The position numbers were made by a program, and so were the translations under genes. The notes below the pieces were generated by a model that saw only the letters and a program-made list of their open reading frames with translations, did no database searches and was not told where the DNA came from. A stretch of 64,000 nt of DNA from Patescibacteria group bacterium (GTDB lineage: Bacteria > Patescibacteriota > Patescibacteriia > Patescibacteriales > GWC2-42-12), in NCBI GenBank assembly GCA_041662965.1, contig JBAZRI010000003.1, positions 1,331 to 65,330 of the forward strand. Direction: 5' to 3'. Each line of letters starts with the position of its first letter. The first letter of the stretch is position 1. Positions 53,041 through 55,935 of the stretch are shown in pieces.

Positions 53041-55935
53041 TTAAATCACAATATTAATCAGCTTCCCTTTAATAAATATTATTTTCACCACTTCTTTTCC
53101 CTCCAGCCATTTTATGATTTTTTCGCTTGCCAAAGCGATTTTTTTTGCTTCATTTTCGCTAATATCAGCCGAAACTTCAATCATATCGCGCACTTTGCCG
53201 TTTATCTGAATAACTAAATTAATAGTTTCGTCTTTAACCATCACCGGATCATATTCCGGCCATTTTTCTTTAAAAATACTTTGCTTATACCCTAACCCGG
53301 ACCACAGCTCTTCGGCCAAGTGCGGCGCGAACGGACTTAGAAGTATCAAATATAAAGTATAGTGTATTGGATATATTTTCTCTTCTTTCTCCAAAACATT
53401 AGCTAATATCATTAAAGCGCTAATTGCTGTATTAAATCTTAAATTTTCAATATCTTCAGTAACCTTTTTAATGGTTTTATTGACAATTAATTCCAACTTT
53501 TTTTCTCCTCCTTGATACTTTATACTTGATACTTTATACTGCATTTTCCAGATTTTCTCTAAAAATCTAACCTGGCCGATAATGCCTTTAGTATTCCAGG
53601 GCTTCATGTCTTCAAGCGGCCCCATAAACATTTCAAACAAGCGCAAAGCGTCGGCGCCGTACTGCTTTACCACGTCGTCAGGGTTAACCACATTACCTAG
53701 AGACTTGGACATTTTGCGGCCGTCTTCGGCTAAAATTATGCCTTGATGCCTTAATTTCTTAAACGGCTCGTCAAAATCAATATAGCCCAGATTATGCAAA
53801 ACTTTGGTAAAAAAACGGGAATAAAGCAAATGCAAAACCGTGTGTTCGGCGCCGCCGACGTATAAATCAACCGGCAGATATTTTTTTATCATGGCTTTAT
53901 CCGCGAAGGCTTTTTTATTGTTCGGGTCAGAGTAGCGGAAATAATACCAGGACGAGCAGACAAAAGTATCCATAGTATCCGCTTCCCGGCGCGCCGCGCC
54001 GCCGCACTTCGGGCATTTTACTTTATGAAAACTTTTTGATTTCATTAAAGGCGACTCGCCGGTTGGCATAAAATCCACGTCAGTCGGCAGTTTAACCGGC
54101 AAATCTTTTTCCTTGACCGCGACCTCGCCGCATTTAGCGCAATAAATTATGGGAATCGGCGCGCCCCAATAACGCTGGCGCGATACCAGCCAATCGCGGA
54201 TTTTATAATTTACTTTTTTAAAGCCGATTTTTTTCTCCTCCAGCCAGGCGGTGATTTTTTCCCTCGCTTCTTCCGAGGTTAGGCCGTTATATTCGCCTGA
54301 CTCAACTAAAATTCCGTCATCGCAGTAAGCAAAATCGCCGTGAAAATATTTTTTCCAGGCGAATTGCTGATTTTCAACGTTAATAAAAGATTCAATCTCA
54401 TTCTCCGGAATCCAAACTGCTTCATGCCTATCTTTCTCATTTTGATCAACAATCTCTTTTTCTTCATTCTCTAAATCAAAAATAAGATAATAAAAATGCG
54501 CGATTACATTTGAGCCTTTATGCGGCCTATAAAATTCGGCGTAGGTGGAGCCAGGAATTTGTTTTACGAATTTTAAATTTTTGTAGCCGGTCTCTTCTTT
54601 AATTTCTCTTAGCGCGGCGCCAACCAAGCCTCCTCCGTCAATCCCGCCGGTCGGAAAAGATTGCCAGCCGGTTATGCTCCATTTTAGGCAAAGATATTTA
54701 TTATCTTTCGGATTCTTTACGATAGCGCAAACTACTTCGCGTTTTTCCGTCTCCTTATCGGCTTTCGCCGGATTTTTTTGATCCAGCCAATAAGGAACAA
54801 TAACATTTTTTATCGGCAAATTATATTTCTTGGCGAATTCAAAATCACGCTCATCATGCGCCGGCACGGCCATAACCGCGCCGGTGCCGTAATGGGCTAA
54901 AACATAATCGGCCGCGAAAACCGGAATAGTTTCATTATTAAAAGGATTGATTAATTCCACGCCCTCTAGCTTAACGCCGGTTTTTTCTTTAGTATCGGCC
55001 ATTCTCTGCAGTTCGGTTTTCTTTTTAGCCTGGTTAATATATTCTTCCACTTCCGGCCAATTAGTAATTTGATTTTTTAGATCCTGAATCAACTTATGCT
55101 CCGGAGCTATCACGGCATAAGTCATACCGAAGACCGTATCTAAACGAGTCGTATAAACTCTAATTCGTAATTCGCAATTCGTAATTCGCAATTCAAATTC
55201 CGCGCCAGCGGATTTGCCGATCCAATTTTTCTGCGCCGCTTTAGTTGATTCCGGCCAGTCAACTTTATCAAGACCGTCTAGCAAGCCCGAGGTAATGCGT
55301 TTCTCGGCCTCCGTAGCTTTAGCGAAGGACGGCTCTATAAAATCGGTAATCTTAAAAAACCATTGCTCCAGATCTTTTTGACTCACCGGGTTTTTACAGC
55401 GGTCGCAAACTCCGCCCTCGGCCTGCTCATTAGCCAAAACCGTGTGGCACTTACCACACCAATTCACCTTGGCCTTATTTTTATAAGCCAAGCCGTTTCT
55501 GTATAGCAAAAGAAAAAACCATTGCGTCCATTTATAATAATCCGGATCGGAAGAATTCACTTCTCTGGACCAATCATAAGAAAAGCCCATCATCTTCATC
55601 TGCTTGGTGAAATTCTCAATGGCTTTTTCAGTGGTGATTTTAGGATGGGTTTTCGTCTTAACCGCGTAATTTTCCGCCGGCAGGCCGAAAGCATCCCAGC
55701 CCTGCGGATGCAAAACGTTTTTGCCTTTCATCCTTAAATAGCGCGATATAATATCCGTCGCCGTGTAGCTTTCTACGTGGCCGGCGTGCAGTCCGTTAGA
55801 CGACGGATAAGGGAACATATCCAAAATATATTGTTTGTCCGCCCGGCTTTTATCGTCGGCCTGAAAAAGCTTCGGCTGTTTAGCCCAAAATTTTTGCCAT
55901 TTGGCTTCTATTTTTTTGTGATCATACTTTTCCAT
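53041..55935 (-). CDS. leuS: leucyl-tRNA synthetase with an inserted Nudix-like domain
   Basis: HAGH (HIGH), KMSKS, editing-domain edges [19 protein letters not shown] and [23 protein letters not shown], and [17 protein letters not shown]. At 964 aa it is longer than the roughly 800-880 aa I recall as typical. Confidence 0.95.
   Translation of the reverse strand: [964 protein letters not shown]

Follow-up and report, generated by a model that had tools for sequence, protein, structure and literature searches.

We analysed a 64,000-nucleotide stretch of DNA from a Patescibacteria group bacterium (GenBank assembly GCA_041662965.1, contig JBAZRI010000003.1, positions 1,331 to 65,330 of the forward strand; the window). 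One uninterrupted open reading frame (ORF) on its minus strand (53041-55935) encodes a leucyl-tRNA synthetase (LeuRS; leuS) of 964 amino acids (aa) that carries an embedded Nudix domain. We hold with moderate confidence that this domain is a conserved cassette within the CP1 editing domain and acts as an ApnA- or cap-type pyrophosphohydrolase tethered to LeuRS. The peptides quoted in the original prediction, which was made from the letters of the window, all lie in this ORF. That prediction had treated the insertion as a singular oddity. We found that it is one member of a large Nudix subfamily associated with aminoacyl-tRNA synthetases (aaRSs), which occupies several sites and appears to undergo cassette exchange.

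Position and identity of the insert in LeuRS

The host protein is a bacterial-type LeuRS. It scored 1004 bits against NCBIfam TIGR00396 (leuS_bact; cutoff 548), which makes it a member of this equivalog family, and matched the Thermus thermophilus LeuRS 1h3n with 38% identity (E = 7e-229). It was 100% identical to P0004, a protein of a Patescibacteria-group metagenome-assembled genome (MAG). We observed that the LeuRS motifs were intact: HAGH at the HIGH position (aa 50-53; 55777-55788), KMSKS (aa 741-745; 53701-53715), the T-rich motif TTRLDT of CP1 (aa 262-267; 55135-55152) and the catalytic editing residue D361 (54853-54855), all on the minus strand, as are all coordinates within leuS below. 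Across 58 aligned relatives these machinery motifs, including the editing motifs, were at least 90% conserved. A full-length AlphaFold2 (AF2) model had a predicted local distance difference test (pLDDT) score of 85.7, with most of the Nudix block at 88-95, and recovered only LeuRS structures in Foldseek (template modelling (TM) scores 0.7-0.8).

Alignment to the Thermus enzyme paired residue 379 of the window LeuRS with Thermus residue 362 and residue 536 with Thermus residue 376, leaving 156 residues against 13. The sequence PIKNVI and the 13-residue segment at which the LeuRS sequence continues were separated by 161 residues, ~143 aa more than Thermus LeuRS has there. Insert-less relatives from the candidate phyla radiation (CPR) have 14-56 residues at the same loop, typically 17. 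About 145 extra residues had been predicted between positions 54325 and 54805 (aa 377-537); the insert is real and the estimate was right, and we revised its bounds to aa 380-540 (54316-54798; 161 aa). This segment aligned end to end with free-standing 161-aa Nudix proteins. Canonical bacterial LeuRSs (T. thermophilus 1h3n/2bte, E. coli 4aq7/4arc) share all domains and motifs with the window LeuRS in collinear order, and their editing residues are conserved in it. In contrast, they have a 13-18-residue hairpin where the window LeuRS has a 161-residue enzyme domain.

The insert had been placed between the editing domain and the core. We observed that it interrupts the match to the Pfam profile of the editing domain (PF13603): of the 185 profile positions, 1-150 lie before it. 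The LeuRS match resumes at Thermus residue 376, still inside the editing domain, which we take to span Thermus residues 224-417. In the AF2 model, the insert takes the place of the hairpin turn between strand 379-384 and strand 541-543. These data indicate that the insert is nested inside the CP1 editing domain, at a variable surface hairpin, and not between CP1 and the core. Accordingly, aa 1-379 (54799-55935) hold the N-terminal half of the catalytic core, the Zn module and roughly the first three quarters of the editing domain CP1. The remainder, aa 541-964 (53044-54315), holds the end of CP1 and the return to the core, each marked by a 12-residue segment, and then the anticodon-binding and C-terminal domains.

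The insert is almost certainly a Nudix domain. The Pfam NUDIX profile PF00293 matched aa 399-516 (54388-54741) at 51.1 bits in the whole protein (E = 1.8e-13, gathering cutoff 21.1; profile positions 3-119 of 134) and at 55.3 bits in the isolated insert. A domain-only AF2 model (pLDDT 93, predicted TM score 0.86) showed the alpha/beta/alpha sandwich of the Nudix fold and matched Nudix structures in Foldseek with a probability of 1.00. The best match was 2azw, an uncharacterised Nudix protein of E. faecalis (TM 0.77/0.84), followed by the Aquifex Ap4A (diadenosine tetraphosphate) hydrolase 3i7u (TM 0.67/0.80). Further matches were M. smegmatis MutT1, NudI, Chlamydia CT771, Rv2985, Thermus Ndx1, RppH and human NUDT2, and all were at 14-25% identity to the window domain. 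With this profile match, a confident fold and an intact REx2EE helix, the predicted Nudix insertion proved genuine.

The Nudix box spans 22 residues (aa 430-451; 54583-54648). Its second half, the metal-binding helix REUxEExGU, is complete in the window copy (R443-E444-x2-E447-E448-x-G450-Y451), and the peptide REIKEETGY had been read correctly as such. The first half does not conform to G-x5-E: it reads GGID-GG (G430-x4-G435), followed by GLVGAAL up to R443. The description of a shortened first half that lacks its Glu is thus accurate for the window copy and wrong for the family, in which this half is canonical (GG[IV]E[ED]GE). We placed 209 modules on LeuRS coordinates, where site A lies after residue 379. 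The one-residue loop deletion is a trait of the window's subclade (~17 sequences), which also has V for R at position 477. Over all 209 modules, position 435 is E in 72%, Q in 15% and D in 6%.

These departures bear on whether the window's Nudix has lost hydrolase activity and now serves CP1 as a structural part, a tRNA binder or a ligand sensor, a reading that we consider improbable. Gly435 (codon 54631-54633) is unique to the window among site-A modules, its closest species-representative relative (L005; 72% identical) has Gln there, the subclade lacks an R477 that is 85% conserved elsewhere, and Nudix domains without enzyme activity are known (PMC5389931). Against this reading, R443, E444, E447, E448, G450 and Y451 are all intact in the window copy, and position 435 is E or D in the other members of its subclade.

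Selective constraint also speaks against loss of activity. Because synonymous sites were saturated (pS, the proportion of synonymous differences, 0.7-0.8), we did not use dN/dS proper and compared nonsynonymous divergence (dN) of the module with that of the LeuRS core. Between the window and its three nearest DNA-level relatives, dN was 0.17-0.25 for the module and 0.30-0.44 for the core. Since module dN lies below core dN, the window module is not decaying. Over the 209 modules, conservation reached 99% for G430, 98% for G431, 99% for E444, 97% for E447, 100% for E448, 98% for G450 and 91% for Y451, and 199 modules keep all three metal-binding Glu (E444/E447/E448). Family-specific invariants are R399 (97%), K473 (98%), N476 (97%), R477 (85%) and W508 (98%), and also E500 and H504. 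The degenerate structural module once suggested for the insert is therefore unlikely for the family, given the retained Glu residues, and for the window copy, given its low dN. We consider the family likely to be catalytically active. For the window's atypical copy, we put retention of normal activity at an even chance; with Gly435 and a shorter loop, its rate or specificity is probably altered.

Distribution and exchange of the module

We searched 1.84 billion cluster representatives exhaustively with the insert (phmmer) and obtained 419 of them at E ≤ 1e-3 and 181 at E ≤ 1e-10. About half of the best 120 relatives of the full LeuRS carry PF00293, under names that include Gribaldobacteria, Moranbacteria and Parcubacteria. 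A word-indexed search had returned three matches to the insert and suggested rarity. We rejected this as a sensitivity limit because the full-length and exhaustive searches found many.

Most modules (147 of 209) sit at site A. Thirteen occupy site B (residues 203/224), in most cases as conserved tandem pairs, three occupy site C (~254) and four occupy site D (633/647). The other 42 have no recognisable LeuRS flanks, and several of them proved to be fragments of divergent LeuRS. Some LeuRSs (P0124, P0125) carry three Nudix copies. We observed CPR LeuRSs expanded to 1,100-1,380 aa (P0124, P0125, P0129, L008, L017 and L027, and L040 with a 1381-aa open frame); these hold up to three Nudix domains (the tandem at ~203/224 plus one at ~379) together with inserts at ~254, ~605 and ~804.

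The subfamily also occurs outside LeuRS. In P0207, a class II prolyl-tRNA synthetase (ProRS), the module lies between the anticodon-binding and C-terminal domains. Four further ProRS-Nudix clusters were found (P0274-P0277); among named proteins without the insert, their closest relatives are from Nanoarchaeota and Woesearchaeota. In the ProRS module the family invariants are retained, but Leu stands at the G-x5-E position and R443 is replaced by Lys. A genuinely free-standing gene, P0001, lies in an ordinary gene neighbourhood on a contig of 314 kb. A second free-standing protein (P0134; 379 aa) consists of two tandem copies of the same Nudix subfamily, which share 75% identity.

A scan of species-representative genomes gave 52 loci, ~47 of them in a LeuRS frame at site A and 4-5 free-standing; the query was the window's module alone, which biases this sample to sequences sharing its peptides. 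Labels of the carriers include Moraniibacteriota, Zambryskiibacteria, Nomurabacteria, Kaiserbacteria and Paceibacterota, with two DPANN archaea (L025 and L041; labels Woesearchaeota and Nanoarchaeia) and seven rabbit-gut 'Bacilli' MAGs (L042, L046, L048, L050, L051, L053, L054); these labels are unverified. The 'Bacilli' and DPANN carriers have the module at site A, on LeuRS backbones 45-55% identical to the window's, and their boxes are all canonical. Judged by sequence, these modules form a distinct Nudix subfamily that lives mainly inside aaRSs of small-genome prokaryotes, at four LeuRS sites and in one class II ProRS, with a free-standing minority.

The module behaves as a cassette. A neighbour-joining tree of the LeuRS core interleaved sequences with and without the Nudix domain (Nudix+ and Nudix-), and the sequences closest to the window by core (P0010, P0021) have no insert. 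Over the core, identity to the window was flat (64-77%), and module identity was bimodal (61-75% or 30-50%) and discordant with the core. The Nudix+ sequence P0005, present in two independent assemblies, and the Nudix- sequence P0089 were 96% identical, and 32 of their 34 differences fell within residues 371-559. Their DNA matched at 100% over nt 1-1080 and across 400 nt upstream, and at 99-100% over nt 1711-2901. A tract of ~600 nt between them (~nt 1100-1700) was replaced, with ~79% identity in the flanks inside the tract. This pattern is what allelic replacement by homologous recombination would be expected to produce. The two contigs also differ beyond the cassette: the DNA downstream of the P0005 allele is unlike that of P0089 (53% ungapped identity), where an AbiEii-family toxin gene follows the Nudix- leuS allele (L002, 3403-4215, minus strand).

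Modules at sites B, C and D clustered mainly with modules of the same site, and site-A modules were the next nearest (50-59%). Because of this clustering by site, each LeuRS site was probably colonised once or a few times. Taken together, the sequence comparisons indicate that recombination of a tract comprising the module and its flanks brings about the module's gain, loss or replacement.

Clean presence and absence alleles in an essential gene, patchily distributed, also resemble inteins, and the insert might be a selfish element, intein-like or mobile, that does nothing for the cell, or else an assembly chimera. We regard either as very unlikely. In the insert only NUDIX exceeded the Pfam threshold, and neither a Hint nor a homing-endonuclease domain was present. 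The junctions (VPYW... and ...AYCDD|GIL) lack the intein Cys/Ser...His-Asn signature, and the catalytic residues and the module as a whole are under strong constraint. As for a chimera, the reading frame is unbroken and GC content and composition over the insert are unremarkable. An assembly artefact, one of the two outcomes that would have undone the original prediction, was refuted by recurrence: well over 100 independent assemblies (NCBI, JGI, ENA, Logan) contain this architecture. The other, an insignificant Nudix profile match, was refuted by the score above the Pfam cutoff.

The Nudix module is not the only insert in these synthetases. Long LeuRS relatives without a Nudix match carry other inserts at ~254, ~379, ~605, ~640 and ~804. 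In proteins with other cassettes (P0048, P0052, P0072, P0082, P0123, P0169, P0217; P0036, P0047, P0153) we identified a YdeN-type serine hydrolase (PF06821) at sites A, C and E, a Ham1/ITPase domain (PF01725) at ~804 (202 bits) with a weaker match at ~254, and an ANT(2'')/NTP_transf_5-like nucleotidyltransferase (PF10706) at site A. Among the inserts scanned, three types of 120-135 aa had no Pfam match. The Nudix module, its free-standing homolog and four other LeuRS inserts had no match at E ≤ 0.01 in PADLOC-DB, and a conflict or immunity reading is therefore without direct support.

This variety raises a less probable but substantial alternative. The module could be an ordinary house-cleaning Nudix with no chemical link to leucylation, for which the insertion-tolerant loops of an essential, constitutively expressed gene are parking places in streamlined genomes; its cassettes would have spread by homologous recombination between leuS alleles. 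Unrelated small enzymes and modules without a Pfam match in the same loops, at least six insertion points in LeuRS, the patchy presence and absence with an allelic swap, and free-standing copies in ordinary gene neighbourhoods all fit such a passenger. On the other side, ~80% or more of the sampled modules are in LeuRS, with several apparent stand-alone copies being LeuRS fragments, and the subfamily has also entered the unrelated class II ProRS. No embedding host other than an aaRS was seen, and an opportunistic passenger would be expected in many host proteins.

Probable function of the tethered Nudix domain

To assign a substrate class, we compared the family with characterised Nudix enzymes. 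None of the curated Nudix equivalogs was reached: the best was RppH (NF001936) with 29.7 bits against a cutoff of 118, followed by weak matches to NudI and NudB. Searched against PDB sequences, the family profile found AvrM14-A/B first (E = 8e-11, whole domain aligned), then the Aquifex (2e-8) and lupin (4e-8) Ap4A hydrolases. AvrM14 has been reported as an mRNA-decapping Nudix (bioRxiv 10.1101/2023.11.14.566975). These nearest relatives have in common that they cleave a 5'-5' polyphosphate bridge joining two nucleosides, whether free or in an RNA cap.

Members of the ApnA hydrolase/RppH (NudH) group (Aquifex aq_158 3i7u, lupin 1f3y, Chlamydia CT771, E. coli RppH) share the fold and the REUxEExGU helix with the module and are among its best profile and fold matches. 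The lupin Ap4A hydrolase also has a 'WQ/WK-x-F-x-GG' lead-in that resembles the module's. A loop ~17 residues after the Nudix box is a determinant of specificity, and in ApnA hydrolases it holds a marker Tyr (Dunn et al. 1999, reviewed in PMC5389931). We observed that the corresponding 10-residue X-loop region of the window module (aa 468-477; 54505-54534) has the aromatic pair F468-Y469 at +17/+18 from the box (family consensus [FY][YF]), a candidate counterpart of the ApnA marker Tyr by position. A family-specific turn, K473-x-x-N476-[R or V]477, follows the pair. Unlike this group, the module has its own invariants (R399, K473, N476, W508) and is embedded in an aaRS. The best solved sequence relative, AvrM14-A/B (8dp8, 8dp9) from the flax rust Melampsora lini, has a K-D-x-x-R turn (SKDTQR) that aligns with the turn in the module's X-loop. 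Unlike the module, it is a eukaryotic secreted stand-alone effector at ~20-25% identity and has no link to translation.

Ap4A and Ap4N arise on synthetases through attack of ATP or another NTP on the aminoacyl-adenylate bound to the enzyme. On the strength of the nearest solved relatives, a cap-hydrolysing Nudix and Ap4A hydrolases, we tentatively assign ApnA-type or cap-like 5'-5' polyphosphates as the substrate class. The occurrence of the subfamily in two unrelated synthetases fits a substrate that synthetases generate or bind. The module would be a Mg2+/Mn2+-dependent pyrophosphohydrolase of the ApnA-hydrolase, RppH or decapping type. It would cleave Ap4A or Ap4N by-products of the synthetase, or equivalent cap-like structures on RNA 5' ends, and its tether to the mobile CP1 would hold it beside the site where such compounds arise.

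Of the by-products proposed for it originally, Ap4A-type compounds are still the leading candidate, on account of the nearest solved relatives. Hydrolysis of misactivated adenylates has no support: aminoacyl-adenylates are mixed anhydrides of a nucleoside monophosphate and do not belong to the nucleoside-diphosphate-X compounds that Nudix enzymes cleave, and we set this pre-transfer editing role aside. The intact CP1 editing residues disfavour it further.

Several observations weigh against a tethered ApnA- or cap-type hydrolase, beginning with the missing equivalog match. The substrate class is drawn from relatives at only 14-25% identity, and the K-x-x-N-[RV] motif of the X-loop matches no described specificity motif. 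The window copy lacks the Glu of G-x5-E, has a one-residue loop deletion and has V for R477, and could be slow or re-specialised. The Nudix- allele of the P0005/P0089 pair rests on a single MEGAHIT contig. Finally, the other enzyme domains in the same loops fit LeuRS as a permissive scaffold at least as well as they fit a LeuRS-specific coupling.

A broader reading would join the two ideas: the aaRSs of ultra-small host-dependent prokaryotes (CPR, DPANN and possibly reduced gut Bacilli) would be scaffolds for interchangeable enzyme cassettes, of which the aaRS-specific Nudix would be functionally coupled to its host. We consider this speculative and rather unlikely as a whole. Within it, the Nudix might strip 5'-triphosphate or Np4A-type caps from tRNA or other RNAs at the acceptor end; alternatively, it might destroy the synthetase's own Ap4N and so link aminoacylation to alarmone and RNA-cap metabolism.

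Genomic context and significance

We also assessed the genes around leuS. Downstream of leuS, 14 nt from its stop, lies a HAD-family hydrolase gene (PF08282; 52163-53026, minus strand); the two share a strand and are probably co-transcribed. Directly upstream of leuS (55979-56422, minus strand) lies a 147-aa stand-alone LigD 3'-phosphoesterase (PF13298, 139 bits) without a ligase or polymerase domain. The window also encodes a pyruvoyl-dependent arginine decarboxylase (PF01862, 210 bits; 56643-57293, minus strand), an enzyme more usual in archaea than in bacteria. Elsewhere, the window encodes an 898-aa fused restriction-modification enzyme of the Eco57I/MmeI type with N6_Mtase, Eco57I and TaqI_C specificity domains (26477-29173, minus strand) and an ORF of 1,796 aa (10389-15779, minus strand). 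Two ORFs, of 957 aa (4910-7783, minus strand) and 313 aa (50548-51489, plus strand), had no Pfam match at E ≤ 1e-5. ARAGORN found zero tRNA genes across the 64-kb window.

Some LeuRS-Nudix sequences are already annotated in databases, merely as 'class I tRNA ligase family protein', and automatic Pfam hits to them are public. In the full texts searched, which include few papers from subscription journals, nothing described LeuRS or ProRS with a Nudix domain, CPR synthetases with enzyme cassettes at several sites, or a catalytic domain nested in the editing domain of a bacterial aaRS. One precedent is isoleucyl-tRNA synthetase with a GNAT N-acetyltransferase (NCBIfam NF040702, 'ileS_w_GNAT'), which is also a class I synthetase with an added catalytic domain and has its own annotation class. 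Compared with it, the window system involves another synthetase and another enzyme, is nested in CP1 and is one of several interchangeable cassettes. Both components are of known kinds; the nested architecture, its spread and its cassette dynamics appear to be undescribed.

Overall, our data suggest that, in lineages noted for their minimal genomes, a second, conserved active site has been built into an essential enzyme of translation. Should the Nudix domain act on Ap4A/Np4N or on RNA 5' ends, the makers of these compounds and their remover would be physically coupled, and the disputed role of the dinucleoside polyphosphates that synthetases make could be approached directly. Whatever the domain does, the pair of almost identical alleles with and without it, together with the alternative cassettes, provides a natural system for the study of domain insertion and exchange in an essential gene. 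The inserts also map the LeuRS loops that tolerate insertions of 120-250 residues, which is useful for engineering.

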